Shown here piece after piece: positions 6,337 to 55,176 of a stretch of 64,000 nt of DNA (position 1 is the first letter of the stretch; each line of letters begins with the position of its first letter). The position numbers were made by a program, and so were the translations under genes. The DNA lies in IMG/VR virus record IMGVR_UViG_3300024239_000121, positions 7,923 to 71,922 of that record; one strand, given 5' to 3'. The notes beneath the pieces were generated by a model that was not told the DNA's origin, did not search any database, and worked only from the letters and a program-made list of their open reading frames with translations. The stretch is from a virus.

Positions 6337-7850
6337 TGACCATTACCTGGCGAAACGTAGGCATGCCTCAAGCAGGCGGTGCCGGTGTGCTTTTGCGTGG
6401 TGCTGCCCAGTCCTTGAACAGAGGGTTCCAGGATCTGCGGGGTGTCCTCACTGATTATGATCAGGGTGTTCGTCACCAGGCCGATGCTACCCGGACGATC
6501 AACACTCAGGCTTTCCTGGATCGCCTGTCTAGCTACCGTGATCCGGCTGCCCTGCAGGCTGCTATTCAGAGCGGTGAGGTGGACGCTTTCCGGCAGCAAC
6601 TAGGTCCGCTGATCAATCGGGATGCGGTACGAGGAGCAGCCGAACAGCGTTTGGCTTCGCTGCAGGATCAGACACTCAAGCAGAACCTCTTCGCAGATGA
6701 CATCCGTCAGCGTAGCGAACGAGGTATCCGCGACCAGGCTGTCTCTGCTGCAGCCCAGGGAAACCAGACCCTATTCCGTCAGCTGTTGGACGGCAACGAC
6801 CTGCTCAACGAAGGTGAGCTGGAAGGTATGTGGGTCAAGAGTGAACGTGAACGTGCCCAGGAATCCCGTGCGGTCAAGCAGGACCAGCGGGCAGAAGAGT
6901 CCTTGGGCATGCAGCGGACCCGGTTCAACCAGCAAACTCAGGACTGGAACGAAAACCAGGCCTTGAAGGGCACTGCTCGTGAGGTCAGTGAGTTGCTGCG
7001 TAGCCAAGTACAGGCTCGTGCTGAGCAGGAAGACGCCAACTGGAAAGGCTATGAGTCCGTCGCCCAAGGCATGGCAGATCAAGGCGTGCGACTGGTCAAC
7101 GGTGTCCCTGACTTCTCAGGTGTGCCTGAGGAATCCCGCGCTGCCGTAGTGGCCGACTTCAGCAAGCGCGCCGAAGAGGCTGGTGTGAAACCCCTGGCTT
7201 CACAGACCGAACTGCGTCGGCAGATGGTTGACACACTGTCGCAGTACAAGAATCTGCCTGTAGAAAAGATCGCCCCTCTGGCAGACAACTTCCTGGCCAC
7301 ATTGGCCAGTCGTAATGCACTGGCTCCGGAAGATCAGGCTGTCCTGGATAACGCCATCAAAGTGGAACAAGGCATTTACCAGGAACAACAGAAAAACGAT
7401 CCGTACACCAAGACCGAGTTCAATCCGGCCAAGGTCACGGCTGAGTTGTTGGATAAGGCTACAGGCAAGGACTGGAACCCTTGGGGCCTCTCCAACAACT
7501 CCACTGTTCGCAATGAACTTATGACGGCACTCAATGAGTCGCTGACCAAAGGAGTTGAAGTAACACGCAAGGATGGAAGCAAAGTAAACGTTCCGGTTCC
7601 AAGGGAACTTGCTGAGTTGGCGATCAGTGGCGTCGAAGATATTGAGGCGGACGATTACAAGTCCAACTTAATCAATCTTTTGAGCCGTCCGGAGGTATTA
7701 GAACAAGTTGAAAGAGGGCAGAATGTACACACCAATTACGCCAACCGAGTTTCTGCCTTGAAAGAGCAGTTCCACGGGGCAAAAGGCGTACGTCCATTCT
7801 CGCTCGAACAATTCGAACGCAGTCTCAAGAACGCAAACAGGAATAACTGA
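6336..7850 (+). CDS. N4 gp51-like ejection protein
   Basis: Starts MTITWRNV; lies directly upstream of vRNAP with TGATG coupling; no Cys. Confidence 0.8.
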   Translation: MTITWRNVGMPQAGGAGVLLRGAAQSLNRGFQDLRGVLTDYDQGVRHQADATRTINTQAFLDRLSSYRDPAALQAAIQSGEVDAFRQQLGPLINRDAVRGAAEQRLASLQDQTLKQNLFADDIRQRSERGIRDQAVSAAAQGNQTLFRQLLDGNDLLNEGELEGMWVKSERERAQESRAVKQDQRAEESLGMQRTRFNQQTQDWNENQALKGTAREVSELLRSQVQARAEQEDANWKGYESVAQGMADQGVRLVNGVPDFSGVPEESRAAVVADFSKRAEEAGVKPLASQTELRRQMVDTLSQYKNLPVEKIAPLADNFLATLASRNALAPEDQAVLDNAIKVEQGIYQEQQKNDPYTKTEFNPAKVTAELLDKATGKDWNPWGLSNNSTVRNELMTALNESLTKGVEVTRKDGSKVNVPVPRELAELAISGVEDIEADDYKSNLINLLSRPEVLEQVERGQNVHTNYANRVSALKEQFHGAKGVRPFSLEQFERSLKNANRNN

Positions 7851-13800: not shown

Positions 13801-16800
13801 ACTGTGGAAAGCCCTGGCCAAGCACGTCAATCCGGCGATGAAGATCGTCTATGTCACGCCTGAGATGGCGATCCCGGAAGGTGTGGCCGAGAAGCAGGCA
13901 CAGTCTGCCCGTGGTCTCTACAGCTTCAGCGATTCGATGGACACGCTGTACATCAAGAGTGATGCGTTCCGTCGTTCGGGTGTGACGACCGAGCTGCTGA
14001 TGCACGAGCTGGTTCACTCGGTGGTGGCACGTACCATCGATCTGGCCGAGCAGGGTAAGCCTTTGCCGGATACGGCTGATCTGGTGGCTGAACTGGGTGT
14101 GCTGCTGGAGCGTAGCCGTCAGCATGTGGCCGATAAGCCTGAACTGGCTCAGCGGTACAGCAATGCCCTGGCCAACGTGCAGGAGTTTGTGGCGTGGGGC
14201 ATGACCAACCAGGGTTTCCAGCGTGATGTGCTGAACCAGTTCACCCTGCAGACCAAGACCTCGCGCAACGTGCTGGTCAAGGCCATGGAAGCTCTGACCA
14301 ACGTCCTGCGTGACATTCTGTTCCGTGGTTCGGACAAGTCGGCACAGAAGATCCAGGTCACTGGCTTGAAGACGCTGCTGGCCAACGTCTCCGGTCTGAT
14401 GGCGACTGCTGAGCAGGCGCGTGAAACCGTGGGTACTCAACGCACTCTGGCCATGGAAGATCCGGTTCTGGATATGGACGTGGCTGATCTGTTCGATGGC
14501 CTGCGTAACCCCGAGCAGCCACTGGATGTTGGCTTCGAGAGCCACCTGCGTGAGCTGCTGGATAATGTGGTACGTCCGCTGCATGGTCCGTTTGGTGCTG
14601 TGCGTCTGGAAGCCCTGGACGATCAGGCGATCGGTGCCCGTGAGCGTTTCCTCAAGGCCCTGGCGACTGGCAAGGCGCCTTTCGCTGCCAAGCTCAGCGA
14701 GGTGGTGAAGCTGTCCGATCAGGAAGCGTTCCTGGCCGAGAGCATTGAAGTCGCCCTGCGTACTGCCCTGGAGTCGAAGGATCGTTCGTCCTCGCTGGTC
14801 TACCGCGAGCTGAAGGGTCTGTACAACGAGGTCAAGGCCTCGCTGCCGGTATCGGCATTCTTCGATGGCGACTGGACCCAGGCCAACGATGAACAGAAGG
14901 CAGAGGCCCAATCCCTACGTGAGTTCTTCCTGGAGATCCCGGACGGGGAAGGGCAGTCCGACTACCTGAGCCGCTTCGCTGCTCTGGGTCTGGCCTACCG
15001 TCCGCTGTGGAAGCTGCTGGATCGATCCACTCAGCAAGACACTCGTGTCCTGCGTGATCTGACCTGGATGCAGCGTCTGCAGGCTCTGGTCGAGCGTGCC
15101 ATGGCCTATCTGGCCGGCAAGTGGACGCACACCTATGCCGGTCAGCAGGCCAACGACAAGCTCAAGACCCTGGTCGGTGAGCTGGTGGATATCGAAGCCA
15201 AGTACCGGGAGAAGGCTGCACGTCCGAACAACCAGTGGATCGAGATGGCCGAGAACGCTCTGGCCGGTGTCCAGGGCAAGGCCAAGGACATGATCGACCA
15301 GGTGGCCAAGTCGGACATGGTGCGCAACTCGAAGATCAGCGGTGTACGTCTGATGGGCCGGGTGGCCAGCCTGGCTGCTGATGACCGTCTGGAAGCCGTG
15401 ATCGATGCAGGTAACCAGCTGCGTGACCGTCTGTTCAAGGGTCGTCAGGGTCTGATAGCCGGCACATTCAACGAGATGAAAGGCCCGAACGAGATCATGC
15501 TGGCCCTGCTCAACTTCGCCAAGCGCAACGAGCAGGAACGAAAGCACCTGATCAACTGGACCCGTGATACAGCCCTGGGGAGCTTTGCCAACAAAGGTAA
15601 GCACCTGACTGCCAAGGATAAGGACGCCTTGGCTCTGCTGCTGCGTGCTGATCTGGCTTCGCTGCTGGATTACGGCTACTCGCTGGAGGAGATACAAAGC
15701 CTGCTAAGTCCCAATGGCAGCCTGCAGCAGCGGATTGGTGATCTGAGAAAGCAGCTAATGTCCTCGACTCATGCAGCAATGTACCTGCGTCGCGCCGAGG
15801 CATTAGGTGCCTACATGGTTACAGGAAAGGCTCGGATCAAAGGCTTGATGAAAAATGCGGACAACATCGCTCGCATGTTGGGCACCAAACATGCACATAG
15901 CATCCCGGATGCTGAGCTGGAACGAGTACGTCCCCTTATCGATCAACTGGCTTCTCTGTACGCATTGGAATACGCCAACCAATCCGACAAGGACCGGATT
16001 GCCAATGTGCTGGCGACCGAGCTGCAGCGTACCGATGGTGGTAACGGGGTGACTTTCGTGCTGAAGATGCACCGTGCCATGCAGCAGGAAGCCAAGGAAA
16101 AGCTGTTCGAGAATAGTGAGGCCGTGTTCACCAAGGGCTACACACCGGAGATCCACAACCCGCACATCGAGGTACTGGCTGCCACCGAGGAAGAGGGCGC
16201 AGCATTGGAACGCCAAGGCTTCCAGCGTGTAGCAGGTAATCCGTTGAATCAGGATATCGATGATTTAGACAAGCGAGCCAAATACCTCTATGTCCTCAAG
16301 GGCCGTGGTATGCAGCAGCGTCTGACCGGTGCCCTGTCCTACACAGGTGAGCGCGCCAAGGGTAGTCGCAAGCATAGCGGGATAGTCAACACGATCACTG
16401 GCAGTATCAACACTCATAATCAACAGGTGACTCAGCGGATTGCCCGTGCCGCCTCGATTCGAGAAGAGCGGGCAATTCAACAGAGGATGGGGCTTGGAGG
16501 AAGCAACAACTTAATTCCAATCTTAAATGCTGCTGGAGATATCGTTGGGCACCGGTATGAGATGAGCAACAAGGTACGGGATTCCCTGCTGGAGCGAACC
16601 AATGCGTTCGACACTCTGCTGGGTACGCTGCACGGCAACGTGTTCGATAAGCAGGCGTCCCGTGAGCAGAACGCCCAGGTGGTCCAGGCCTTGTTCGATC
16701 AGTGGAATGCCGACAAGGACAGTCGTCGTGACGCCTACATCATGGTGGGTCCGGACAGCAGCGATGACGAAGGTGTAGAGACCTGGCGTCTACTACCGCA

Positions 16801-17962
16801 CCACACCCAGGAAGTGATTCGTCAGGTGTGGAAGGGCAACAACATGATGGTGCGCAACGATCAGATCGACCTGATCGCTGGTTACCGCAAGTACAGCCTG
16901 GCCGACATGTTCGACAAGGATGAGCGTACGACCAAGGGCTGGAAGAACCTGCTCAAGCATCAGGAAGATGAACGCAACATGCTGGAACAGATGTTCGTCT
17001 GGTTCACCGAAGACTTCTTACGGCTGGATAAGAAAGCTGCATTGCGTGTTCGCCAGGCAGAGGATTTCTGGCAGGCGGTAGTACAGGAGGTAAAGGACAT
17101 TATAGTGGTGCGTACTGGCCTGGTTCTGTTATGGAACATGATCAGCAACATGACTGTACTTCTGTGGCAGGGTGTTCCGATCAAGGATCTGATGCGGAAT
17201 CACTGGGTAGCATGGCGTGGGGCAGTCAACTATCGGAAGGATTCCGAAGAGCTGTTCCGTCTGGAAGCAGCACTGTCGACTGGCACGTCTGGGGATGCGA
17301 AGGCTACACAGCAGCGTATTCGCCAATTGCAGGATTCTCTGGCACGTAACCCGGCCAAGGAACTGATTGATGCGGGGATGTTGCCGACCATCGTCGAAGA
17401 CGTGGCCTTGGAGGAAGACCCTTACTCCTATCGCAGCAAGCTGAAGGAGAAGGTGGATCAGTACACCAGCAAGCTCAACCCCACGGTCAAGCAAGCGGCT
17501 GCGTTCGTTTACATGGCTCCGGGTACTCCGTTGCACACGGCGATGAGCCAGGCCACTCAGTACTCGGACTTTGTGGCTCGCTACACGCTGTATCAGCACC
17601 TGATCAACAACAAGAAGGCGCCGAAATCCAAGCAGGAAGCCTTGAAGCGGATCTCCGACAGCTTCGTCAACTACGACGTGCCGTCGCACCGCCACATGCA
17701 GTACCTGAACGACATGGGCTTGCTCATGTTCACCAAGTACTACCTGCGGATTCAGAAGGTGATCATGCAGATGTTCCGGGAGCATCCGGCTCGGGCGATC
17801 ATGATGGTGACCCTGGATAGCTACCTGCAGGGCATGCAGACCATCGTCGACTCCTCGATGTGGGGCCGACTGGGTAATCCGCTGGAGTGGGGTGCCTTGC
17901 AGTACCCTGGCACGCTGGATGAACTGGCCACCATCAAGGGAATGATGAGCCTGATCAAGTGA
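7850..17962 (+). CDS. Virion-encapsidated RNA polymerase (N4 gp50-like)
   Basis: 3370 aa with no Cys seen. Motif A EVDGVTNG, motif B RELMKPPVTKSGYG, motif C NVHDA, and a downstream HELVH zincin-like motif. Confidence 0.97.
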   Translation: MPNFDLDTYFANREARTLGVATPEGVTDLNAKQAQVASASAKKVQVLQELVERRENNERDTVVGWLGLDPNSTGGNVVNTAVSSLSAIEDIAGTVAPEAVREAIDMDSLIATQHAGTKPSSVQRRLIGDGAVSGLKSAIAVPEMAVGLADLVSSGHAGKALEEAGFRPEEAKQFLDTLKTHEQQAASGSVEDAQGFWGTLAEIAENPSFIPHAVTESLFPMLAGGVVGRGLQALGMGVKAASAIGEGAVMAGSAAEGIRQQTEDGLLTPKQAAAAGLTGVMGAGVARLGNAVGGRTGLRDIDEAVTAGTLGTSQRNALARGAGGAVIEGAEETLQSAGEQMLQNVALDRELTEGVGNAAAMGLVTGAAMGSVMTGSAREANEEEVEQASETGNVSSLLQPGAYAPEKAAKALATHSLKNEDPQVRQDNLAKLGEIRSALEDEAKAEAMVERIQQRMESAPQEQQPQLEALLAQATESLTTIRAALGLQDVPAAERKEALAKQLDQVKQAEASITQLMEPEKQDLSSQIELADTVLENVTPEVQQTARKAAERVVSLAMESPEALDVEVANRLASNMANSLTEPERVVLRTFAKAKALAHQVKGLEGVNSDIFNGNKKEGYKGLNEYSSNVRRALAYKTPDLEAAQHEIDGLAKFVESRKAKLAVAQKAFDEVAGSANTQQWVRDRSGTWMPADRQYSYDEMYAMGGMTIHGGSGNLVANIAQETEALEAGLQSLQALYDMKSAAPVQTTVNQPEAAAPQAIEPVEQKAPVETPEQEAGIAEDAPEAVKYRKTNNLKRLFSQQPGNPTTGTQRPLVATENFLTKLSQGEVNTLDYVQQEDLSEEQLGLPSAFIRMAKAWMPTIEDNFFKRTTQASHKTDARDHYYNDYTQYLQDEQGQVDENVKTAIAAAAFAHVADNGGQTLNDNTTINKTLGKDKDASITPAANQKLRRIGTLRGALINSLGQAVVQSLGYQLKDDAPQSEKAKLEVALGAQALALLLDQGIVEQTTLTKGELDDLKGVDFNGQIKAMRAVAKTQADRDAITKLIESRKNEVAFIRFVTNKDGSLTQEAQAIRDASKNTGGLFTKLFGIETGPREPSFKPLKYNQKTANNSTKPISDKERAALEKEAKAPYILQKDMWAVLEKIANPAMILQMAGVQDEALETLHKTNRDGVIAKNQGLLREWERLVAFVGDLSRQKAGQDTKFYLMPSAWKNDRVGLDSAINPQTSKIHRFVVGKQSAETVVRWTEDDQTNLDVFKLRVAEGLGVKTDKQDNKRSLAAYEAEMQKPVYQDAVAALRKALLDQDLTSGEQQAIVEGVKAGRANFHSLSSLVAQATYENAREAGQQKFTTMLLAEVDGVTNGPMLSHLLFGAFGSLKDAMTRLNKGGFFEIGNAFEQYNLWRAAPGQSDLYESTAIDLNKVVQKKWQNKKLQPMYSALFYVTGKLDDNGSPTRAGRELMKPPVTKSGYGEGLGKTVETMAEDFIQQVYDHIQEISAGKSKLELQPLLSSVRLLISKADEKAAAELDVDMPIEKAMEFTFTNQQFKALKATYLNTLGSDITDTISKAFGRFTQRRQVFNQAANLAFDLYQQLYQSKRRALIEQLIAEGKMATDAKGVPLHDLTNKQEAELQASLTDVAPILHTAFSSAGDQLEAGMRLAKRDKGLSNEAAYRNEVKFGKKGKKPMAGLRAFGYKIGEVGPGVSGAVGSVHSTDAAISINAGAEVDSINVHDARIYGLKDVHAGARSLNKQTFLQALEYSPMDQMLATLERSIKGLADALAQENDATLKAGVASLLAEKIASLSENQRETLSQSGKGPIEFQLDQLRATALAAESMKLEILANLQAVDQYAFEGGAYRVTEQDRAKAQQKLEERKNRPADEAATEAAKRIDATLNQKTAQAKPAPVVQSEPTLVDDADLGIPERQEDPVVTTSAWGELGKSPIEHDSELVQFFKSNPQPSLKDVLKVLRARIEATSTGRTQEFNRELWKALAKHVNPAMKIVYVTPEMAIPEGVAEKQAQSARGLYSFSDSMDTLYIKSDAFRRSGVTTELLMHELVHSVVARTIDLAEQGKPLPDTADLVAELGVLLERSRQHVADKPELAQRYSNALANVQEFVAWGMTNQGFQRDVLNQFTLQTKTSRNVLVKAMEALTNVLRDILFRGSDKSAQKIQVTGLKTLLANVSGLMATAEQARETVGTQRTLAMEDPVLDMDVADLFDGLRNPEQPLDVGFESHLRELLDNVVRPLHGPFGAVRLEALDDQAIGARERFLKALATGKAPFAAKLSEVVKLSDQEAFLAESIEVALRTALESKDRSSSLVYRELKGLYNEVKASLPVSAFFDGDWTQANDEQKAEAQSLREFFLEIPDGEGQSDYLSRFAALGLAYRPLWKLLDRSTQQDTRVLRDLTWMQRLQALVERAMAYLAGKWTHTYAGQQANDKLKTLVGELVDIEAKYREKAARPNNQWIEMAENALAGVQGKAKDMIDQVAKSDMVRNSKISGVRLMGRVASLAADDRLEAVIDAGNQLRDRLFKGRQGLIAGTFNEMKGPNEIMLALLNFAKRNEQERKHLINWTRDTALGSFANKGKHLTAKDKDALALLLRADLASLLDYGYSLEEIQSLLSPNGSLQQRIGDLRKQLMSSTHAAMYLRRAEALGAYMVTGKARIKGLMKNADNIARMLGTKHAHSIPDAELERVRPLIDQLASLYALEYANQSDKDRIANVLATELQRTDGGNGVTFVLKMHRAMQQEAKEKLFENSEAVFTKGYTPEIHNPHIEVLAATEEEGAALERQGFQRVAGNPLNQDIDDLDKRAKYLYVLKGRGMQQRLTGALSYTGERAKGSRKHSGIVNTITGSINTHNQQVTQRIARAASIREERAIQQRMGLGGSNNLIPILNAAGDIVGHRYEMSNKVRDSLLERTNAFDTLLGTLHGNVFDKQASREQNAQVVQALFDQWNADKDSRRDAYIMVGPDSSDDEGVETWRLLPHHTQEVIRQVWKGNNMMVRNDQIDLIAGYRKYSLADMFDKDERTTKGWKNLLKHQEDERNMLEQMFVWFTEDFLRLDKKAALRVRQAEDFWQAVVQEVKDIIVVRTGLVLLWNMISNMTVLLWQGVPIKDLMRNHWVAWRGAVNYRKDSEELFRLEAALSTGTSGDAKATQQRIRQLQDSLARNPAKELIDAGMLPTIVEDVALEEDPYSYRSKLKEKVDQYTSKLNPTVKQAAAFVYMAPGTPLHTAMSQATQYSDFVARYTLYQHLINNKKAPKSKQEALKRISDSFVNYDVPSHRHMQYLNDMGLLMFTKYYLRIQKVIMQMFREHPARAIMMVTLDSYLQGMQTIVDSSMWGRLGNPLEWGALQYPGTLDELATIKGMMSLIK

Positions 17963-40594: not shown

Positions 40595-41016
40595 GCATCC
40601 TGGGAGTGGTGCCTTCGCTACTGGAAGTCGGTAGCAAGCTGATCGACAAGCTGATCCCAGATCCAGAGGCGAAAGCCAAGGCTCAACTGGATCTCTTGTC
40701 GCTTCAGCAGAACGGGGACCTGAAGGAACTGGAGACGCGCATGTCGGCCATCATCGCTGAGGCCAGCAGCACTGATCCATGGACCAGTCGGGCACGTCCG
40801 TCCTTCCTCTACGTGTTCTACTTCGTGATCCTGAGCCTGACGGTTGTGGCTCCGGTGATCGGGGTGTTCAACCCGGATGCCATGGCGTTGTTCTTCGAGA
40901 ACGTAGGCAAGGGTTTCGCTGCCATTCCGGAAGATCTCTGGTTTACATTCACTGCAGGCTACTTAGGATATGCAGGCTTTAGGACAGTAGAAAAGACAAA
41001 GGGACTCTCCCGGTGA
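40591..41016 (+). CDS. Holin (GTA-type 3TM holin family)
   Basis: KLIDKLIPDP, DPWTSRARPSF, TM segments and GYLGY..RTVEK. Confidence 0.85.
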   Translation: MSILGVVPSLLEVGSKLIDKLIPDPEAKAKAQLDLLSLQQNGDLKELETRMSAIIAEASSTDPWTSRARPSFLYVFYFVILSLTVVAPVIGVFNPDAMALFFENVGKGFAAIPEDLWFTFTAGYLGYAGFRTVEKTKGLSR

Positions 41017-41591
41017 AAAACTGCTTGTGGTGTAACACCCCTTTTGAGCCAAGACGTAAGGATGCGTCTTGCTGCTCTCGTAAGTGCGCAAAAGCCCGAT
41101 CAGCTCATCTATGGAGAGATGCAAACAGGGAAAAGCATAGGGAGTACAGCTCAAATTATTACCAAAAAAACCAAGAGGCCTGCTACAAGACAAGCAGGGA
41201 GTGGATCTCGGCTAACAGAGGGAAGGCGTCGTCTTACAAAAGAGCATGGGAGGCAAGAAACCCAGAAGCCAGTAAGAGGTGCAAACGGAATTGGGAACTC
41301 CTCAATCCAGCGGCAATGGCGAAGAAGGCTGCCACTAGAAGGGCAGCCAAACGGAACGCCTGCGTCGCTCGTGGCTCGGAATATCACGAGTTCTTCATGC
41401 AGGAAATTTACTTAACCAGACAGGCACTTTCTATAGCTACTGGAGTTGTTCATCATGTGGATCACATAGTGCCGCTGATTAGTAAACACGTCTGTGGGCT
41501 GCATGTACCCCTCAATCTTAGGGTGATTCCTTGGTATGAGAACCTGTCCAAAGGTAACCGCTTGATACAAGCGATGGGTGTAGCTGCGTAG
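41013..41591 (+). CDS. HNH endonuclease
   Basis: N-terminal CxxC..CSxxC; HHVDHIVPL..VCGLH...NL..EN..KGN; lower GC. Confidence 0.88.
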   Translation: MKNCLWCNTPFEPRRKDASCCSRKCAKARSAHLWRDANREKHREYSSNYYQKNQEACYKTSREWISANRGKASSYKRAWEARNPEASKRCKRNWELLNPAAMAKKAATRRAAKRNACVARGSEYHEFFMQEIYLTRQALSIATGVVHHVDHIVPLISKHVCGLHVPLNLRVIPWYENLSKGNRLIQAMGVAA

Positions 41592-41630
41592 CCTAATCAA
41601 GGAGTGGAACCGGTGAGAAAAACTCACAGA

Positions 41631-41660
41631 AAAAAGCCCCGGATCTCGGGGCTTTTCTTT
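41631..41660. terminator. Bidirectional terminator
   Basis: AAAAAAGCCCCG-GATCT-CGGGGCTTTTCTTT. Confidence 0.85.
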
Positions 41661-41666
41661 GCCCAT

Positions 41667-41690
41667 TTCGGGCCACTTTTCGGGCCAATT
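41667..41690 (+). repeat. Integrase arm-type sites, left
   Basis: Tandem TTCGGGCCACTT and TTCGGGCCAATT. Confidence 0.75.
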
Positions 41691-41761
41691 GGGTGTTTTT
41701 GAGGGCTGTTGAGGGGCCTGCAGCCCAGTAAATACGTTCAACAGACCTCAAAAAAACCCAC

Positions 41762-41797
41762 CTAGAACTGCATGGTGATGTTGGCGGTAGAAATCAA
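41762..41797 (-). other. attP core resembling the 5' end of a host YbiT-type ABC-F gene
   Basis: TTG ATT TCT ACC GCC AAC ATC ACC ATG CAG TTC TAG = MISTANITMQF*; 29 bp from the int stop; flanked by arm repeats. Confidence 0.8.
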
Positions 41798-41825
41798 GGT
41801 GCTCTATCTCGTGGGTTTCAGAGGG

Positions 41826-43013
41826 TTAGGTTTCGCTTCGGGCCAATTTCGGGGCAATTTTCAATTTCCCCATCTCGTTCCAGTCACCCTCACCATCGAT
41901 CCAGCGTGCGTATCGAGAGAGGAGAATTTGTAACGAATGGCCGAGCTGTTTGGCGATGAAGGCAGGAGTCATTCCAGCCATCAGGCACATGGTTGCGTAC
42001 GTGTGGCGCGCATTGTACGGAGGCCGGTAACGAATACCCAGCGCCTTCAGGGTTGGACGCCACTGATGGTGCAGGTCACTCGTCTGTTGGATGAACTGAT
42101 GCCCCTTGCTGGGCGGGAAGCAGTGAGGGAATTCCTTGATCCTTCCCGATCCCTTGGCTCGCCGTTCGGCATACGCCTTGGCGAACTCCAGGGCATGCAC
42201 AGCCCGGTCATTGAGCAGCACGTACCGATCCTTCTTGGTCTTGGTTCGGTCTTCCACTTCCTTGAGGGCAACTGTCCGACGAACCAGCACACGACGCTTC
42301 TCCAGCTCGACGGAATCCCACTGCAGTGCAGCGATCTCACCCAGGCGCATGCCTGTGTAGAAGGCGAACTCGAAGAAGGCAGCGTAGATACCACTTGGCC
42401 AGTGCTCGGTGGCATACAGCCTGTCGATGATCAGATCAGCCTCTTCCTGAGAGAACGGATCGATGGTCTTTTCCTTGGGACGGGGAATGTCCAGATCGAC
42501 CATGGGGTTCTCGGCGATGAGCTTGTCGCTCACAGCCGATTCCAGGATGGTGCTCAGCTTGTTCATCGCATTGGCTTTGACGCCATCGGTGGTCCAGGGA
42601 ATGCGTACCACCAGCTCACGCATGAATGCCGTGGTCAGGGCCGTGATCGGCGTGGTGGCCAGGTACTTCATCCACCAGTGGTTGAGCACTGACCGGTAGT
42701 TGACCCGTGTGCCCTCAGCCAGCTCACGGCTATCGAGCCAGACCTGAGCGTACTGACCGAAGGTGTAGCTGACGGCAGCCATGGAATTGGTGGAGTTGGG
42801 GAACAGCTCGGCATAGGCCTCGGGGGTGAGGGTGCCGTGCTTGGCCATCTGGACTACTTTATCTCGTAGACGGGATGCAGCCGTGATCCCCGCTTGCGTC
42901 GTGGGGTAGTCAAGGGTCTCGGAGCAGCGTTTTCCGTTCCAACTGAATCGGATACGGAGCGCACCGTAATGGAGTTCAACTCCTGTGGGCAGTGCCACTG
43001 GCTTTCTTGCCAT
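41826..43013 (-). CDS. int: Tyrosine integrase with N-terminal arm-binding (DUF3596-like) domain
   Basis: TGMRLGEI, YNARHTYAT, IAKQLGH and YARW catalytic motifs; N-terminal LRIRFSWNGKRCSETL. Confidence 0.95.
   Translation of the reverse strand: MARKPVALPTGVELHYGALRIRFSWNGKRCSETLDYPTTQAGITAASRLRDKVVQMAKHGTLTPEAYAELFPNSTNSMAAVSYTFGQYAQVWLDSRELAEGTRVNYRSVLNHWWMKYLATTPITALTTAFMRELVVRIPWTTDGVKANAMNKLSTILESAVSDKLIAENPMVDLDIPRPKEKTIDPFSQEEADLIIDRLYATEHWPSGIYAAFFEFAFYTGMRLGEIAALQWDSVELEKRRVLVRRTVALKEVEDRTKTKKDRYVLLNDRAVHALEFAKAYAERRAKGSGRIKEFPHCFPPSKGHQFIQQTSDLHHQWRPTLKALGIRYRPPYNARHTYATMCLMAGMTPAFIAKQLGHSLQILLSRYARWIDGEGDWNEMGKLKIAPKLARSET
41837..41859 (+). repeat. Integrase arm-type sites, right (inside the int 3' end)
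   Basis: TTCGGGCCAATT and TTCGGGGCAATT. Confidence 0.75.
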
Positions 43014-43204
43014 GTTTCAAACCTCGATCGGCTGTAGTAAATGCGGCCATTCATGCGGTTCCAGACCCCTTCAGGGATCTGCTTCCTTGCTCTTCTGGCT
43101 TCCAGAGAGCGGTCGGTGGTGCCCAGAATTTCAGCCATCTGCTGCTCGGTTACCTTGTCGGGATACCATTCTGGGAGTTCCTTGATCTGCTTTTCTACGG
43201 ACAT
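42854..43204 (-). CDS. xis: Excisionase-like winged-helix protein overlapping the int 5' end
   Basis: EQQMAEILGTT.RSL..RR..IPEGVW..GRIYY; directly upstream of int. Confidence 0.75.
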   Translation of the reverse strand: MSVEKQIKELPEWYPDKVTEQQMAEILGTTDRSLEARRARKQIPEGVWNRMNGRIYYSRSRFETWQESQWHCPQELNSITVRSVSDSVGTENAAPRPLTTPRRKRGSRLHPVYEIK

Positions 43205-45554: not shown

Positions 45555-47174
45555 TCAGGCTGCGGAGAGAATCTGCTTCTCTTCAGCCTCGGTAACACCC
45601 AGAGCCGACCAGCTCTTCTTGGCTGCCTTCTTGATCGAGACGATGTTGGAGGCATTGGTCTTGATGCCGGCAGTGATCAGGGCACGGATGCGCTCACGGG
45701 GAGTGCCAGTGGCGACCGGTGCAGCTTTCTTGGCTTTGGCTGCAGGGACGACGGCTTCAACACCGTTGGCGATGGCAGTGATGCTGGCCACCTGGCTTTC
45801 GGAGATACCCAGCTTGTCCCAGCTGACCTTGGCGGCCTTCTTGAATGCTAGGAGTTCCTTGGCCTTCTGGATCTGCACCTTGCCGGTCTTGCCTTCCAGC
45901 ACAGCCTTGAGCAGGGTTTCCGCTTGCTGCTGACGACCCGACTTGCGCTCGGTGACCACTTGCTTGGCTACCTTGGCTGCGTCGACGCTGGTGCCTTCCT
46001 TGGCAACTTCCGGCAGCTCGTCGAGCGAGACAGCCTGCGTGGTCTCTTCCATGACCACTTCGGTGGCTTCAGCAACTGGGGTGATGATCAGTCCACCCCC
46101 GTACTGCTCGGTGATTTCCACGGTCTCCAACACACCGACGTGGTTGCCTGCAGCTGCGTTGCCCAGCAGCACGGTGTCCTTCATCGGACGGTTGCTGCAC
46201 ACCAGGTCGGCGTCTTCCTTCGAGAGCTGAGCAATGATGTGGTAGCCCTTGGCACGCAGCTTCCGTGGATCACGATGAGGCACAGCGATCACGTCTTCCG
46301 GTGCCAGCTTGGCCAGCACACAGACGTTGCCACTGAAGCTGCTCAGGTAATCCCGGCGAGCCACATGCAGGCCGTTGGAACACTCGGTGTGGCGATCCGG
46401 ATCAACCAGGTCCTCGCTCATGAAGACCTTGCTGCCGACCTTCTGCTTGACGTTCTTGGAGTGGCAGTCGACGAACACGCCTTCTTCGTTGGTGGACTGC
46501 AGACGCTTGTACACCAGCACGGTGCCGTCGTCAGCGATCGGCAGTTCGCCTTTCTCCATGAAGGTCAGCAGATCCTGTACCGAGTGACGCCGCTGGACCT
46601 TGGAGACGCGCTCGAAGAAGTTCTTCACGCCTTCGGCACTGCCCAGCTTGCTGGCTACCGCCTGGATCTGCACATCGATCTTCTCGATGCCTGGGATGAT
46701 TCCACCGGAGGAGGTCACAGCCACCACGGTCTCATCTTCACCCAGCGGAGCGTGGAACTCCGGAGAGCTGACCGGTGTGGCATTGGCCATGATCTCGGCC
46801 ACAGCAGCCTGGCTGGCCGTCTGCGGTGCAGCAGCTTGAGCCACGTCACCGACTGCGATCGGAGCAACCGGTGCAGCCGAATCCAGATCAGCGAACTTGC
46901 TGAACATGTCCTCGATGGTGTTCTTGAACATGCGGAAGAACTGCACGAAGCCCCCCATACCGGCTTGGGCTTCGTTGTAGTGGTTGCTGATGGCGAGATC
47001 TTCGGCGGTCAGGTCGCAGAATTTGTCTGCTTCCAGTGCCGGGATCACTTTGTCCACCAGGGGACGGATACGGCTGTCGCCCTGGGGAACCAGGATGGTG
47101 GTGCCATCCTGTTTGTAGAGGGTAAGTCGCTGGGTATCGACTACGGCAGCGATGATACGAATAACTTCAGACAT
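45555..47174 (-). CDS. rIIB: rIIB-like protein
   Basis: LPIADDGTVLVYK, CSNGLHVA and PEDVIAVP..KLR motifs. Confidence 0.9.
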   Translation of the reverse strand: MSEVIRIIAAVVDTQRLTLYKQDGTTILVPQGDSRIRPLVDKVIPALEADKFCDLTAEDLAISNHYNEAQAGMGGFVQFFRMFKNTIEDMFSKFADLDSAAPVAPIAVGDVAQAAAPQTASQAAVAEIMANATPVSSPEFHAPLGEDETVVAVTSSGGIIPGIEKIDVQIQAVASKLGSAEGVKNFFERVSKVQRRHSVQDLLTFMEKGELPIADDGTVLVYKRLQSTNEEGVFVDCHSKNVKQKVGSKVFMSEDLVDPDRHTECSNGLHVARRDYLSSFSGNVCVLAKLAPEDVIAVPHRDPRKLRAKGYHIIAQLSKEDADLVCSNRPMKDTVLLGNAAAGNHVGVLETVEITEQYGGGLIITPVAEATEVVMEETTQAVSLDELPEVAKEGTSVDAAKVAKQVVTERKSGRQQQAETLLKAVLEGKTGKVQIQKAKELLAFKKAAKVSWDKLGISESQVASITAIANGVEAVVPAAKAKKAAPVATGTPRERIRALITAGIKTNASNIVSIKKAAKKSWSALGVTEAEEKQILSAA

Positions 47175-47184
47175 GATTGTTCCT

Positions 47185-49581
47185 TTACTTCAGAAGGTTG
47201 CGAACGAGGGTGTAAGGAATTTCACACTCGGCACTGCCTGGAGTGACTTCTTCCATCGCGTTGGCCAAGTGATTGAGATCGATGAAGTCCGCCCAAGGCG
47301 AGGTCTCCATCTTTTCTTTGCATGTCTTGAGCAACGGGTGCTCCTTGACATGTTGTGTCGCTTCCTTGCACTTCTCGAAGCTGCTCAGTACTTGTTCCAT
47401 GTTGCGGCAGATCTTCATCAGAACAGCGTTTTCCGGGGAGATATGGAAACGCAGTCCCATGGATTTCATCAGCTCTTCATGGAAGCAAGCATTGAACAGA
47501 ATCTTGTGTGTGTCGTAGTACCGGGGTTGCAAGTGTCCTGCGAATGCAGCAAAACGCTTGATATCCTGAGAAGTTGACAGCTTCTCATCGGCATACTTGG
47601 TGAGGAACTTGGTCACGTTCTCGATCCCTTGTTCTTTGAGTTTATTGGCTTGTGTGTTGGTGACAACAGCAATCCGATCGCCCCACTGTTGCTGAATGAG
47701 GCGGGAAGTAGCTGCATCGAATCTCTCCACTTTGGTGGAATTATCTCCGTTAGGGCGAAGAATGACCCACGCAATAGGATCTTCCACCAATGTTTCATCG
47801 GTGAAGTTCTCCCGAGCATGTGAAAGCAGGAATTTCCTGTTCACGTTGTTGTAACTGTGAGTCAGCGACAAGTAGCCATCTTTCTTCTTACGACGCATCG
47901 GCTCTTTCTTCGGCAGAGTTGGGTCGCGTACTACACGTACCCGCTCAGGAAGATGAACTTCAACGGCATAACCCTGTTGCTTCAGGAATGTGTTGATCAG
48001 TTCCTTGGTTTCCTCGGACTTCTTGTTGTAACCAACATACATCACCAGATAAGTCCGGAAGCGAGTAGCTGGAGTTTTTTGGAAATACTCGTTTGCCTGC
48101 TTCTGGTTGCGGGTGATCAGTGCATGCTTGTTCAGCATCACTGTTATGTCGCGTCGCTCTTCGAAAGCAGCCACATAAGTGGGGCAGAAGTAACTGTAGT
48201 TCCAGCTACCATTGTTCAGGTATATCTGGAACTTCAGCTCCCCCAACTCCGGGGCTGCGCTCAACGCCTGCTTGAGGGGATAGTCGAGGTAACGGCTCAC
48301 CAGGCTTCTGCCTGCTTTCCGGTTATGCCAGCGACCCAGATCCAAACCGTTCAGGCGCAGCAGTGCTTTAGCCATTGGCTTGAACACTTCACCTCGACGT
48401 ACCAGCTCTTCCAGCATGCGTATTTGCATCAGCTCACTAGGGATACGAGACCCCAGATGCCGTGCCGCTACCTGCATGGATGCCTGTTTGATCGTCGTGG
48501 AGAAGCGACCGACGACTGTTTCTTTGGCAATAGCAGGGGAGCAGTCAAGGCGCTCTTTAGCGGTGTACCAGGTACGCAAAGTGGCTGTTTCTGCCTCACG
48601 AACCTGTGTGTTCAGCCTGGCGTAACAGAGCTGCCGTACCACTTTCTCGCTGGATTCACGCCCTTTGAAGTCGTAGTTATCCAACAGACTCTTGACCGTG
48701 TTCACCGTGGCATCGGTCAGAATGATCGCTTCCCGGTTGGGGGCAATCGAGATGCTGTCTGGTGGAGCCATGAAGGTGATCGTGGCGTTGCTCCACAGAC
48801 GCCGCAGGTCGTTGACGATGTAGTGGTACTGGGTGCCGTACTCATCGCGATAGGGCACCGGGTACACCACATTGCCGTAACGCAGGTTGATCTCCTGGCC
48901 AACGGTTCCCCGGAAGTCGGTGATCGCGTAGCCGGTCGGGCTGGTCGACAGGGGCAGGGTGACCAGAGGGTCTGCACCATTGATGCTGGCCTGGATCTCG
49001 CCCAGGATCAGCACCTCACGGATCAGCTTCAGGAACTCCTGCTGGTCCTGAGCCTGGATACCGAACGACACGGCAATGCCGGTCTCATCGGTCGGCAAGG
49101 ACATGATCTTGTTGATCGAGGGCTTACCGCCTTTCTCCATCGAGGACTTGGAGACTCGGTAAATGGTCTTCACGCCCAGGTGGTGAGAGGCCACCTCGAA
49201 GTTGTCGGTGTAGGCGAACGGAGCCTTGCTGCCCAGACCAAAACCACCGGTCGACTTGGAGTCGCCACGCTTGGTGGAATTGCCGTAGACCCCGTAGATC
49301 GGGCCGATCTCGGCATGAGCAATACCGAAGCCGAAGTCACGCACGGTCAGTTGTGTGCCGGTGAGGGTGATCTGCAGCGGGGTATTGGTCTTGCCTGCAG
49401 CGATGTGAGCATCCCAGCCGTTACAGATGATCTCGCGCACCACAGCCAGCTTAGGGTGGGTGTACAGGGTGGAGGACAGGATGTGCATCAGGGCTGCGTC
49501 ATCGCTTACGCCCATTTCCACGGTTTCCTGGTTGCCTATCACGGCGTGCGTGATGAAATCGTCTTGTTGGGAGACCTGCAT
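47185..49581 (-). CDS. rIIA: rIIA-like protein
   Basis: N-terminal HATPase motifs: REIICNGWDAH, VRDFGFGI, STK..GGFGLGSK. Confidence 0.9.
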   Translation of the reverse strand: MQVSQQDDFITHAVIGNQETVEMGVSDDAALMHILSSTLYTHPKLAVVREIICNGWDAHIAAGKTNTPLQITLTGTQLTVRDFGFGIAHAEIGPIYGVYGNSTKRGDSKSTGGFGLGSKAPFAYTDNFEVASHHLGVKTIYRVSKSSMEKGGKPSINKIMSLPTDETGIAVSFGIQAQDQQEFLKLIREVLILGEIQASINGADPLVTLPLSTSPTGYAITDFRGTVGQEINLRYGNVVYPVPYRDEYGTQYHYIVNDLRRLWSNATITFMAPPDSISIAPNREAIILTDATVNTVKSLLDNYDFKGRESSEKVVRQLCYARLNTQVREAETATLRTWYTAKERLDCSPAIAKETVVGRFSTTIKQASMQVAARHLGSRIPSELMQIRMLEELVRRGEVFKPMAKALLRLNGLDLGRWHNRKAGRSLVSRYLDYPLKQALSAAPELGELKFQIYLNNGSWNYSYFCPTYVAAFEERRDITVMLNKHALITRNQKQANEYFQKTPATRFRTYLVMYVGYNKKSEETKELINTFLKQQGYAVEVHLPERVRVVRDPTLPKKEPMRRKKKDGYLSLTHSYNNVNRKFLLSHARENFTDETLVEDPIAWVILRPNGDNSTKVERFDAATSRLIQQQWGDRIAVVTNTQANKLKEQGIENVTKFLTKYADEKLSTSQDIKRFAAFAGHLQPRYYDTHKILFNACFHEELMKSMGLRFHISPENAVLMKICRNMEQVLSSFEKCKEATQHVKEHPLLKTCKEKMETSPWADFIDLNHLANAMEEVTPGSAECEIPYTLVRNLLK

Positions 49582-49598
49582 GATCTTTCCTTTGGCTG

Positions 49599-49628
49599 AA
49601 ATGAAAAAACCCGCACTAGGCGGGTTTT
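49599..49628 (-). terminator. Terminator upstream of rIIA
   Basis: AAAACCCGC/GCGGGTTTT stem; - strand tail TTTCATTT. Confidence 0.75.
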
Positions 49629-49679
49629 GGGGGTTGTTTAAGGTCAAGTTGCGATGCGTTGAAACAGCTAAGCGGTTGT

Positions 49680-49916
49680 TTAGACACAAGCCTCCTGGAT
49701 GGCCACCTGAGCCAGACGTGCTGCACGCGCTGTGAGCAGTTTGGATAAGGCATGGGTGTATTCATCCAGGTCAAGAGCGCCCCGCTCATAGAGCATGAAC
49801 AGGTCTTCTTGAGTTGATTTGCAGCGGACACGCACTTCGTACGCATCCTTGGAACGCTTGATCAATAACAACTTGGCGTTGAGCCATGTTTGAGCGAATT
49901 CATAAGTGAAGGTCAT
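49680..49916 (-). CDS. Hypothetical protein
   Basis: GGAG RBS before MTFTYEF. Confidence 0.6.
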   Translation of the reverse strand: MTFTYEFAQTWLNAKLLLIKRSKDAYEVRVRCKSTQEDLFMLYERGALDLDEYTHALSKLLTARAARLAQVAIQEACV

Positions 49917-51785: not shown

Positions 51786-51992
51786 TTAGTGGTACTTAAC
51801 GTAGTTACCAACCGGAGAAGGGCCTGAGCACTCCTCCCAGTTGTTCTCCTTGCACCAATCGAATAACTCGACGCAGCCTGGCATAACAGGTGAAGCAAGC
51901 ACGTAGCCAGTTTCATCTTTTGATGAGTACAAGAACGTGCCTACCGTACCGTCAGGCGCTGTGCATTGGATTGCCAGATAGGCTTTCTTCAT
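51786..51992 (-). CDS. Hypothetical protein
   Basis: ATGA overlap with the DNA polymerase stop. Confidence 0.65.
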   Translation of the reverse strand: MKKAYLAIQCTAPDGTVGTFLYSSKDETGYVLASPVMPGCVELFDWCKENNWEECSGPSPVGNYVKYH

Positions 51993-54649
51993 GCAGCCTC
52001 CTTGTGGGATTCCAACTCCCCCAGCGCCTTTTCACATACCTCGCGGATCTGCTCAGGCGTGGCGTCGTTGGGTAGGGTGATTGGGTGTGCCCAGTCCGGG
52101 TAGAACAGGTCCAGTGCCGCACCGAGTTTCACGGTGTCGTGCTGGATCTCCGGCAGCTCCTGCCACTGCATCGACTTGATCAGTTCCCGGTTGGCCCAGG
52201 TGACCACATCGATCCGATCGCGGATGAGCAGGTAGATGGCGTCATGGATCAACGCCACCGGCAGCACGTCATAACGGAACGGGGAGTTCCAGACCTTCTG
52301 CATGAACTCGACTGCTGCCCGGTTGTTCAGCAAGCCGTAGGACTGACCCAGGGCGTTACCTGCGGTACGGCCTTCTGCTGCTGCCTCGTAGGGCATCTTC
52401 GAGCCTTTCCAGATCACCTGCTTGAGCAACGGGGTGCGTACCCGCAGTCCGAATGCCACCTCGACGTAACCGTCTTTGGCAGCCTGCTCCAGCCGTTTGG
52501 CCACGTACTCATCCGACACCTTGTAGAGGTCGTGGTAGTTGGCCTCGATCACCTTGGCCTTGTCCTCCGGCCAGCCCAGGTTGCTCATCATCCCGTGGTA
52601 GGTGCCACCGTAGGTGAGCAGGAAGGTCGGAGCCTTGGAGTCCTGGCGCAGATCCGGTGCCAGCTTCTTGATGGAGTTCACCGACGCTGGATCATCCAGT
52701 GCGATGCGGATGCCACGAGCCAGGAGGTCTTCCTGGAAGTAGTAGGCCGCCCGTAGACAGTGACCGTCGAAGCCCTTGATGTAGACGTTGAGCTTGTTCG
52801 GGTCCTTGGTCGTCAGGGCACTGATGTAGTCCTCCAGCGAGTTGAAGTCAGCCCCCGCGAAGATCCAGCCCTTGGGTGCCGAGAAGCAGCCCTTGATCAG
52901 CTTGCCGAACGTCGACCCCGATGGGATCTGTTGCATGTTCGGTTTGCTGGAGCTGAGGCGTCCGGAGACCGTACCACCCAGGTTGTAGCCGCCGTGCAGC
53001 CAGATCTTGCCGTCACCCTTGTCCAGTGCTTTTTCAAACGCCGGGATGAATGCCGACAGGATCTTGGTGACCCCGATGTACTCGACCATGGCCTGCAGGA
53101 AGGCTTTGTCCTCTGGTTTGCTGGCATGGTTGACCAGCTTCTCCAGGGTGTCACCGCCGGTAGCCGGTTGCTTGGTGTCTGTCAGGTCTAGGACCGGAAG
53201 GCCCATCTCCTGATACAGCAGTCGTTGCAGCTGCGGTCCTGAGTTGGGGTTGAACACCGACTTGGGGAAGAAGGTGCGGTCCTTGGGGAAGATCTTGTCG
53301 GGGTTCTTCGCCTTGTTACGGCGATCCTCGAAGTCCTTCTCCCAGGCCTCGTGGGTCATCTTTGCTTCCAGTGGAGCGATGAGCGGATGGCCCATGATCA
53401 CCTTGAGGTAACTGGCTTCCAGTCGCTCCAGTTCGGCTTTCGCTTCCTGTACCCGCGACCGCTCCATCGGCATGCCGGTCAATTCCATCTGGATGATAAC
53501 CTTCAGGCTCGGCAGCATCAGTGTGTGATACAGCTCCTCCTGCCGGTCGGCCACCATGATGGGGTAGTACTTGGCCTTGACGTAGTTGGTCGACAGACAG
53601 TCCACCAGGTTGTACTGCAGCAGCTTGGCTGGCTCGATGGCCAGGACGTTGTTGATCTCTTCCACCGCCCAGTTGCCGGCGAACTCATGAGCCAGTGCCT
53701 TCAGGCCCAGCACGTTACCGGCTGTACTGTTGGTGGCCAGGTAGGCAATGACCTTGGTGTCGTCGAACGATCGGGTGAGGATATCCAGCCCCAGCAGCAG
53801 GCCTTTCTGATCCAGCGGGTCTTTCATCCACAGTTCATAGATGATTGATCGCAGGTCATAAGAGGCGTTGTGCCAGGTCAACTTACCATTGTAGCTGGTA
53901 AGGAACTTGAGCAGCAGTTGCTTGACTGGCTTGTTGTCCCTACGTTCACCAAAGGGAGCTGACGTAGCGCCCGCGATCGGCTTGTAGTCGACCAGGAACG
54001 AGACACCGTTGTGCTGGTCCCAGGCGAAGCCCATCGAGGCAATACCGGCTTCGTTGAAAGCCAGTCCGAAGGCCTCGATATCTGCCGATAGCTCAGGGTA
54101 CTGATGGAGCGAGTCGAGAGCGGCTGCAATGTCGTCATAGGTGGATGGGTACTGGGCCGAGTGGATGATGTTGTGGCCCAGCGGTTGGTAGCTGCCTTGC
54201 ACGGCATCGGCGAGGGTCTGCAACGACATGTCCAGCTTCTGGTACAACTCGGGGTTGTAGACCAGCTGCTGATAGTTCAGGCCCAACACCACCTGCATGT
54301 GCTCGAATCCCTGGATTTTGCAGGGCAGCACATAGCCGTAGTGAGGTTCGGCCTTGGACATTTTGGTCAGTGTCTTGAAGTACGCTGCATCGGTGCAGAA
54401 CAGGTACTTCACACCCAGGCTGTTCAGCGCGACTAGCAGCTTGTCGAGGTAGTCCTTGATAAAGGCTACCGGGACCTTGCCGGCCTCGTTGTATTCCAGG
54501 GTGAAGCCGATCATGCGGTTGGGGGCTACACCGAGCTTTTGCAACGGCTCGATGTAGTGGTTACGCATAGCCATCTCGTTGAAGGCTGCCGCCTTTGTCA
54601 GCACGGCAACCTCATAACGCTCGGCCTGCTCGAAGATCAGGTGGCGCAT
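51989..54649 (-). CDS. Family A DNA polymerase (N4 gp39-like)
   Basis: Exo ADIEAF; TVSGRLSSSKPNMQQ; motif A DFNSLE, motif B RQDSKAPTFLLTYG, motif C IHDA. Confidence 0.96.
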   Translation of the reverse strand: MRHLIFEQAERYEVAVLTKAAAFNEMAMRNHYIEPLQKLGVAPNRMIGFTLEYNEAGKVPVAFIKDYLDKLLVALNSLGVKYLFCTDAAYFKTLTKMSKAEPHYGYVLPCKIQGFEHMQVVLGLNYQQLVYNPELYQKLDMSLQTLADAVQGSYQPLGHNIIHSAQYPSTYDDIAAALDSLHQYPELSADIEAFGLAFNEAGIASMGFAWDQHNGVSFLVDYKPIAGATSAPFGERRDNKPVKQLLLKFLTSYNGKLTWHNASYDLRSIIYELWMKDPLDQKGLLLGLDILTRSFDDTKVIAYLATNSTAGNVLGLKALAHEFAGNWAVEEINNVLAIEPAKLLQYNLVDCLSTNYVKAKYYPIMVADRQEELYHTLMLPSLKVIIQMELTGMPMERSRVQEAKAELERLEASYLKVIMGHPLIAPLEAKMTHEAWEKDFEDRRNKAKNPDKIFPKDRTFFPKSVFNPNSGPQLQRLLYQEMGLPVLDLTDTKQPATGGDTLEKLVNHASKPEDKAFLQAMVEYIGVTKILSAFIPAFEKALDKGDGKIWLHGGYNLGGTVSGRLSSSKPNMQQIPSGSTFGKLIKGCFSAPKGWIFAGADFNSLEDYISALTTKDPNKLNVYIKGFDGHCLRAAYYFQEDLLARGIRIALDDPASVNSIKKLAPDLRQDSKAPTFLLTYGGTYHGMMSNLGWPEDKAKVIEANYHDLYKVSDEYVAKRLEQAAKDGYVEVAFGLRVRTPLLKQVIWKGSKMPYEAAAEGRTAGNALGQSYGLLNNRAAVEFMQKVWNSPFRYDVLPVALIHDAIYLLIRDRIDVVTWANRELIKSMQWQELPEIQHDTVKLGAALDLFYPDWAHPITLPNDATPEQIREVCEKALGELESHKEAA

Positions 54650-54657
54650 AGCGTCTC

Positions 54658-55176
54658 CTACAGCAGCAGGTTCAGCACCTGTCGCTGTTTCATCAGGTCA
54701 ATCGAAAGCTGGTTCTTTTCCCTGATTGCCTGAATGTCTTCTTCTGTCAGTTTGACCGTTCGACAAGGGCAGCTTGCCTGCATGGCTCGGATGGGTCCGT
54801 GGATCGACTCCGGCAACAGGCGCAGGTAGTCCTCGAAGGTGTTCGAGGCGTTCAGCACCTGGTTGACGAAGCCCATGACGAACGGGACTTCGTTGTCGTT
54901 CAGCCGTTTGACTTCAGCCAGATAGGCCTCCATCTGCGGCTGCAGGCTTGGAACCAGCCGGTTCATCTTGCGGGGCATCGTTGCCTTGGCGTCGATCACG
55001 TAGATCTGGCCACGGTAGGTAAACGATTCGTGAGGGCTGCGCAGAATCCGGGAGTTGTCCCGAATGATCTGCTGCAGCTTGTGGTTGTAGGACCGTTTCA
55101 CAGGCTCGTAGAGGTGGTTGTAAATCGCATCCTTGAGATGCTGCTTGGTCCGAGGATCATGCAGGACTTCATCCAT
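54658..55176 (-). CDS. N4 gp38-like conserved protein
   Basis: Between helicase and DNA polymerase; TAATG coupling. Confidence 0.75.
   Translation of the reverse strand: MDEVLHDPRTKQHLKDAIYNHLYEPVKRSYNHKLQQIIRDNSRILRSPHESFTYRGQIYVIDAKATMPRKMNRLVPSLQPQMEAYLAEVKRLNDNEVPFVMGFVNQVLNASNTFEDYLRLLPESIHGPIRAMQASCPCRTVKLTEEDIQAIREKNQLSIDLMKQRQVLNLLL

Follow-up and report, generated by a model that had tools for sequence, protein, structure and literature searches.

An attachment site whose core copies the start of the host ybiT gene was located on the minus strand of a 64,000-nucleotide stretch of viral DNA (the window; positions 7,923 to 71,922 of IMG/VR record IMGVR_UViG_3300024239_000121). It is very probable that the carrier is a temperate N4-like phage of Pseudomonadaceae and that it holds a functional lambda-type attP with the ybiT start as its core. 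Integrase-mediated recombination with the ybiT start inserts the phage inside the first 11 codons of that gene, as hybrid junctions recovered from viral contigs and metagenomes show. An attP that carries a replacement for the displaced end of a gene is a known strategy; particular to the present case are that a 5' end is replaced, that the target is ybiT, that the carrier is N4-like and that scars are widespread. The use of ybiT as a target has not previously been described at this level.

The window is part of a 74,540-bp record rated 100% complete. A terminal direct repeat of 154 bp was found outside the window (record positions 1-154 and 74387-74540), its two ends differing by one G in a homopolymer run; such a repeat fits an assembly that is circular or terminally redundant, though IMG/VR lists the record as linear. 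A 3370-aa ORF matched the PHROGs profile phrog_2206 'virion RNA polymerase' at 1968 bits with nearly the whole profile covered, and gave a weak match to Pfam vRNAP_dom_2. Proteins for rIIA, rIIB, DNA polymerase, primase and ribonucleotide reductase were also identified by PHROG matches to each module. The genes for the virion RNA polymerase, rIIA, rIIB and DNA polymerase occupy window positions 7850-17959 on the plus strand and 45558-49761 and 51992-54697 on the minus strand. A giant virion-packaged RNA polymerase and a genome that falls within about 70-75 kb and includes modules for rIIA/rIIB, DNA polymerase and primase place the phage among the N4-like viruses (Schitoviridae).

To our knowledge, N4-like phages have long been held to be strictly lytic, with lysogeny suggested by metagenome surveys only. 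The N4-type life cycle depends on an injected virion RNA polymerase, and this counted against the reading of a temperate N4-like phage. Integrase-encoding N4-like genomes from metagenomes, together with N4-like proviruses in bacterial contigs, mostly of Moraxella, are reported in the available part of one survey (PMC10654107). An integrase in an N4-like genome is the feature shared with those viruses. The available part of that survey gives neither attachment sites nor targets, whereas attP, attL, attR and the target are defined for the present phage, which belongs to a Pseudomonadaceae lineage.

In this complete, non-integrated genome the 30-nt core is present as a single copy, and the site is therefore an attP. 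The minus strand from 41797 to 41762 reads TTG ATT TCT ACC GCC AAC ATC ACC ATG CAG TTC TAG, that is, (M)ISTANITMQF and a stop. The core proper (41765..41797, minus strand) comprises the TTG and 30 nt identical to ybiT codons 2-11, as delimited by the exact 30-mer at 22 gene starts and by the homology edges of junction contigs; identity with the host extends over 32 nt for GTG-start hosts and over 35 nt for the hosts in runs X2 and X5. The TAG at 41762..41764 closes an 11-codon stub and ends that stub at attL. TAG or TAA was present at the stub end in 9 of 9 attP or attL sequences from two close integrase groups and was absent in attP of the JBD44 type described below. Between the int stop codon (41826-41828) and the TTG, which starts at the 29th nucleotide, lies a purine-rich leader of 28 nt (GAGATAGAG; 41798..41825, minus strand), unchanged in the attR loci L033, L035 and L036. 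At attR the leader would serve as the ribosome-binding region of ybiT.

Arm-type repeats of the form TTCGGG(C/G)CA(A/C)TT start at 41667, 41679, 41837 and 41848/49, all in the same orientation, and a weaker fifth copy starts at 41655. Two repeats inside the last 11 int codons form the P arm (41837..41860, minus strand), and two repeats with a degenerate third form the P' arm (41655..41690, minus strand). No copy of the strict motif was found outside the att site in the 74,540-bp genome. Across three integrase subfamilies the repeat sequence co-varies between the P and P' arms; this joint change with the integrase supports the repeats as real arm sites, and the N-terminal domain of the integrase is proposed to bind them on both sides of the core. 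The first-pass annotation had described an intact attP with a TTG-ISTANITMQF-TAG frame 29 bp past the int stop, a GAG-containing leader and four arm-type repeats flanking the stub. Each of these was recovered on re-reading: the leader holds GAGATAGAG, a fifth, weaker repeat was added, and the attP is intact.

A 23-nt inverted repeat around a 25-nt centre was measured at 41690-41712 / 41738-41760 (91% complementary; z = -4.35 for the 191-nt region). The earlier annotation had noted the repeat itself and had put it at about 41692-41712 / 41737-41757, coordinates which are corrected here. The group whose integrases are 77% identical retains the outer part of this repeat and its centre, but not the inner stem. 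A role as terminator was considered for this repeat and dropped, because consensus folding of P' arms across integrase groups did not recover a long hairpin. At the outer edge of attP, a GC-rich hairpin between A and T runs (41627..41661) folds with 12 pairs followed by a U run and is predicted to be a clear bidirectional intrinsic terminator; it was revealed by the fold and is absent from the list produced by a simple terminator scan. Two variations bordering the site were also observed. An extra 12-nt arm-type repeat is inserted at window position 41667 in the relatives X15, X3, X5, L037 and L051, so that the number of P' sites varies by single repeats. A 192-aa ORF (41013-41591, plus strand) with an HNH- or endonuclease VII-like product adjoins attP, and the region 40974-41591 is missing from three close relatives (the run X15 contig, L037 and L051); the ORF looks like a free-standing homing endonuclease insertion.

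The int gene (41826..43013, minus strand) encodes a tyrosine integrase of 395 aa with a catalytic domain (PF00589, Phage_integrase; 2.5e-19, 70.2 bits against a cut-off of 27.1) and an N-terminal arm-binding domain (PF12167, Arm-DNA-bind_2; 6.5e-12, 45.7 bits against a cut-off of 22). Directly upstream of int, an ORF at 42854..43204 on the minus strand encodes the excisionase, or recombination directionality factor (phrog_9668 'excisionase', 6.4e-33); its Pfam HTH_17 match fell below the cut-off. Catalytic and arm-binding domains, arm repeats on two sides, a core equal to the chromosomal attB, hybrid junctions and an adjacent excisionase together mark the att site of a lambda-type (arm-binding) tyrosine integrase. 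A search with the integrase returned 17 relatives in viral contigs. Neither near nor distant DNA searches with the int-att region matched anything in the phage collection, where relatives were obtained through the protein search only.

Matching the core against contigs sampled at one genome per species gave exact copies of the 30-mer in 23 loci. At 22 of these it lies directly after a start codon and the sequence runs on past the core as GAKPLFENVSVKFG; the remaining one is a related attP (L013). Since all but that attP are the first codons of the same gene, a chance match is excluded. The core-bearing genomes were mostly Pseudomonas, Stutzerimonas, Azotobacter and Azomonas, plus some MAGs. 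The product of the target gene is a YbiT-type ABC-F ATPase of 528-529 aa (NCBIfam NF011646, 1014-1020 bits against a cut-off of 762) with two ABC_tran domains and an ABC_tran_Xtn linker; the YbiT-like ABC-F of P. aeruginosa is PA1964 (PMC13159725). The assignment of the core to the 5' end of a ybiT-type ABC-F gene, which the first-pass annotation had made and had proposed to check against Pseudomonas chromosomes, was thus borne out by 22 exact ybiT starts, mostly in Pseudomonadaceae. No second core copy was found within the 8-kb genome loci. The exact 30-mer was also seen in MAGs labelled Coriobacteriia (L013), Sulfuricella (L015), Halioglobus (L017) and Endozoicomonadaceae (L009). The Coriobacteriia contig carries the attP of a related phage and was probably mis-binned; the 30-mer in these MAGs reflects binning errors or else a ybiT start that is conserved very widely at the nucleotide level.

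Both types of integration junction were recovered. In five viral contigs the body of ybiT, not TAG, comes after the int stop, leader, TTG and core, as expected of attR; their integrases are 99% (L033), 97% (L035 and L036), 92% (L038) and 73% (L048) identical to that of the window at the amino acid level. In L035 the rebuilt ybiT is intact, with 529 codons. The public-run data compared with the window were contigs; one from run X2, which belongs to the same study as the likely source, matches window positions 42498 to 41765 at 100% identity and then continues with codons for GAKPLFENVS. In run X5, long phage contigs stop at the core in both directions, and short contigs contain the core alone between foreign sequence; these short contigs are the unoccupied site (attB). 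Two close relatives are classed by IMG/VR as proviruses ending at int. For attL, metagenomes were scanned for the end of the core joined to the start of the P' arm, which yielded one attP and one attL. The attL (L051) lies in a 73-kb contig and shows a non-phage flank, TTG, ten codons, TAG and the P' arm, with 92% identity to window 41592-41797; it occupies an older integrase scar. The nucleotide match with the window ends at 41765 in the attR contigs and at 41797 in the attL contig. A core-plus-TAG scan of viral contigs gave attP only and no attL, and an attL with a native GTG-type promoter and stub was found neither in the viral-contig nor in the metagenome scans. The samples that gave attR are not the one that gave attL, and no lysogen was recovered in which both junctions of this very phage are present.

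These junctions are those anticipated in the first-pass annotation, which had placed integration within the first 11 ybiT codons, had expected a rebuilt gene downstream of int and had suggested looking for attL and attR; the five viral contigs and the run X2 contig supply attR, the int-core-ybiT order and the 529-codon ORF of L035 the rebuilt gene, and L051 the attL. Its further expectation of an 11-aa stub followed by a terminator held in part: stub, TAG and P' arm are present in L051, but the inverted repeat that directly follows the stub lacks the form of a canonical terminator, and a clear one stands about 100 nt further on.

Integrases about 52% identical over 97% of the length are encoded by the P. 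aeruginosa phages JBD44, YMC/01/01/P52, DO4, phi1 and vB_Pae_U7/U9. In JBD44 about 30 nt separate the int stop from TTG ATA TCT ACA GCT AAC ATC ACC ATG C, with two repeats in the 3' end of int and two in the P' arm. Phages of the JBD44 type thus share the layout described here, with ybiT-like codons after the int stop and arm repeats in the 3' end of int and in the P' arm. They differ in that core identity is lost after ATGC with no immediate stop codon, and in that the arm repeat is of the TGGTACAG type rather than TTCGGG(C/G)CA(A/C)TT. JBD44 and its kin are lambda- or D3-like siphoviruses, whereas the present phage is an N4-like podovirus. A third repeat sequence, again matched between both arms, was found in the group with 77% identical integrases. 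The vB_Pae_U9 record is trimmed at the int stop and is without att sequence. Available portions of the literature place such prophages near ybiT: YbiT is listed as a flanking gene of vB_Pae_U7 and U9 (PMC11381890), and a 58-kb prophage lies between PA1965 and PA1964 (PMC8088628). The neighbourhood of ybiT rests on these two sources, JBD44 itself having been mapped between PA14_39110 and PA14_39130 (PMC9112912, as far as its available text goes). In the available text of the three papers the insertion site is treated as intergenic, and neither a crossover within a gene nor replacement of a start is described (PMC11381890, PMC8088628, PMC9112912).

Metagenome assemblers can join contigs at short repeats, and the run X5 assembly does break at the core. 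The stretch might on that account be a host fragment acquired by imprecise excision, not an integration site, with the junction contigs as assembly chimeras across the 32-bp repeat. We regard this as barely credible. Junctions were recovered repeatedly, from independent samples and studies, and each time the break is exactly at the core edges; isolate genomes hold full-length related integrases in the same arrangement; and the arm repeats are symmetric around the core and co-vary with the integrase subfamily. JBD44, with the same layout, was experimentally integrated at one defined locus, between PA14_39110 and PA14_39130 (PMC9112912, available text).

Integration at the ybiT start proceeds as follows. 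The core is identical to the last two bases of the start codon and codons 2-11 of host ybiT. At attR the int-proximal arm provides the leader, the TTG start and the left-hand portion of the core, and a full-length ybiT thereby stands behind int on the same strand, 28 nt past its stop. At attL the former upstream region keeps an 11-codon stub, closed by the phage stop codon and followed by the P' arm and the terminator. The crossover can be narrowed from few variant positions: in attL L051 the left core codons (ATC TCC ACC GCT) are of host type and the remainder on the right matches the phage exactly, the synonymous ACA GCT of a 92% relative is present both in its attP (L037) and in an attR (L038), and identity in JBD44-type cores is lost after ATGC. 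Strand exchange is accordingly placed, provisionally, within AACATCACCATGC. The ybiT start may have been chosen as a site because this stretch is nearly invariant across the family.

Traces of related integrations are common upstream of ybiT. At 11 of the 23 exact-core loci an integrase lies directly upstream of the gene (1 full-length, 10 C-terminal remnants); a twelfth integrase match is the related attP L013. A 357-nt remnant plus leader taken from L022 recurred at close to full length in about 30 of the 301 species sampled from the genus of L022, and a remnant of this type stands directly beside ybiT in G003 and G258, genomes that have core coordinates too. Genome G001 contains two core copies 11.5 kb apart, the upstream one behind an older integrase remnant, and the arrangement is therefore tandem. 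Along the locus (L032 2200-2520 / 13750-13990, G001:C9) come first the remnant and a core-like copy that has 3 mismatches, then an element of 11.5 kb whose full integrase is 48% identical, and last ybiT; this order suggests that a later element integrated into the attR of an earlier one.

Of 401 Pseudomonadaceae species, 182 gave a match to a degenerate core pattern, and 100 of those loci were taken (L059-L158), a sample limited to pattern-matching genomes. The start codon of ybiT was TTG in 77 and GTG in 23. Integrase homology was present upstream in 34 of the 77 TTG loci and in 0 of the 23 GTG loci (Fisher p = 2e-5, a value uncorrected for shared ancestry, the species not being independent). 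The 34 comprise 9 full-length integrases, 21 fragments next to the gene and 4 that lie 134-182 nt away from its start. Among the other 43 TTG loci, 29 share leader motifs with the integrase-bearing loci and 21 keep residual nucleotide similarity to the flanks of those loci, as no GTG locus does. The GTG loci have an element of their own: CTACAAT, located about 50 nt upstream, was common to 19 of 23 within 90 nt of the start and is likely the native -10 of ybiT. The conserved Tyr-Asn codons of int (window ~42015-42025, minus strand) read TACAAT and then GCGCGCC, resembling the CTACAATCGCGCC element that precedes ybiT in unscarred loci; the int-internal TACAAT showed no -35 partner, and the likeness may be chance.

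The TTG and leader could also be native and merely copied by attP, in which case TTG-start ybiT genes would not be scars and integration would leave the translation signals unchanged. In its favour, CC-TTG already precedes the core in the hosts of runs X2 and X5, the leader common to some TTG loci and the integrase-bearing ones is no longer than about 20 nt, and in a few distant MAGs the TTG stands behind AT-rich upstream DNA of native appearance. This explanation is nevertheless unlikely, given that upstream integrase homology is confined to TTG loci (with the same reservation on shared ancestry), that 21 further TTG loci and no GTG locus resemble the integrase-bearing flanks, and that most GTG loci have a different, promoter-like upstream motif. 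The TTG starts are thus likely to be integration scars rather than native TTG codons copied by phages; because the species are not independent and the sample is pattern-limited, this direction of change is likely but not proven. A broader form, that in most Pseudomonadaceae repeated integration by this integrase family has overwritten the original promoter, leader and start codon of ybiT, that TTG and the 5' flank are mobile-element scars, and that ybiT in lysogens depends on xis-int transcription, is offered tentatively, as a possibility to which we give less than even weight.

Lysogeny would, by the same layout, rewire the expression of ybiT. Integration would sever the gene from its native promoter (the CTACAAT conserved in unscarred genomes), and ybiT in a lysogen would be transcribed from the prophage side, either by xis-int read-through or from an unmapped promoter. 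Promoter scans found no consensus sigma-70 promoter in the int-att region, in one scar locus or in one unscarred locus. The outcome might instead be effective silencing, with the promoter lost and a weak TTG behind a repressed int, the prophage acting as a reversible off-switch of the active-lysogeny type. No promoter-like site was detected from xis to the core, the TTG start has a weak Shine-Dalgarno match, and int is normally poorly expressed in lysogens of lambdoid phages. Silencing is nonetheless distinctly improbable: all ybiT frames checked behind an element-type TTG were open, with 528-539 codons wherever the locus reached the stop, and they include ybiT behind the integrase remnant of about 350 bp, held at 76-96% identity across some 30 of the 301 species. 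Such long-term retention argues for expression from a 5' end of this kind.

The site resembles known cases in that attP copies the displaced end of its target gene. Phage 21 and e14 at icd, as well as elements that integrate in tRNA genes, reportedly replace the 3' end of the target, and since attP carries a copy of that end the gene is whole after integration. At icd and tRNA sites it is the 3' end that is exchanged, whereas at ybiT it is the 5' end including the translation start, and the exchange therefore takes in expression signals in addition to sequence. Functionally, the nearest precedent is coliphage HK022 at torS, where integration removes the native promoter, a mapped phage promoter drives the gene and host physiology is changed (Carey et al. 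2019, PMC6814406). Both are insertions by a tyrosine integrase at the 5' side of a gene. HK022 inserts upstream of the coding sequence, whereas the crossover here is inside that of ybiT; unlike HK022, the present phage supplies the start codon, the leader and the left core codons too, and the promoter is mapped in HK022 only.

Concrete attP, attB, attL and attR are now given for a temperate N4-like phage. The core and arms provide primers for the detection of lysogens, the integrase with attP is a candidate integration tool for Pseudomonadaceae, and the scars are a marker of past integrations. The 'intergenic' prophage locus of P. aeruginosa appears to lie inside the first codons of a gene, with the translation start replaced. 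The expression signals of a conserved host translation factor may have been replaced repeatedly by mobile elements, and, if the overwriting reading is true, a ribosome-associated ATPase would be tied to the state of the prophage.
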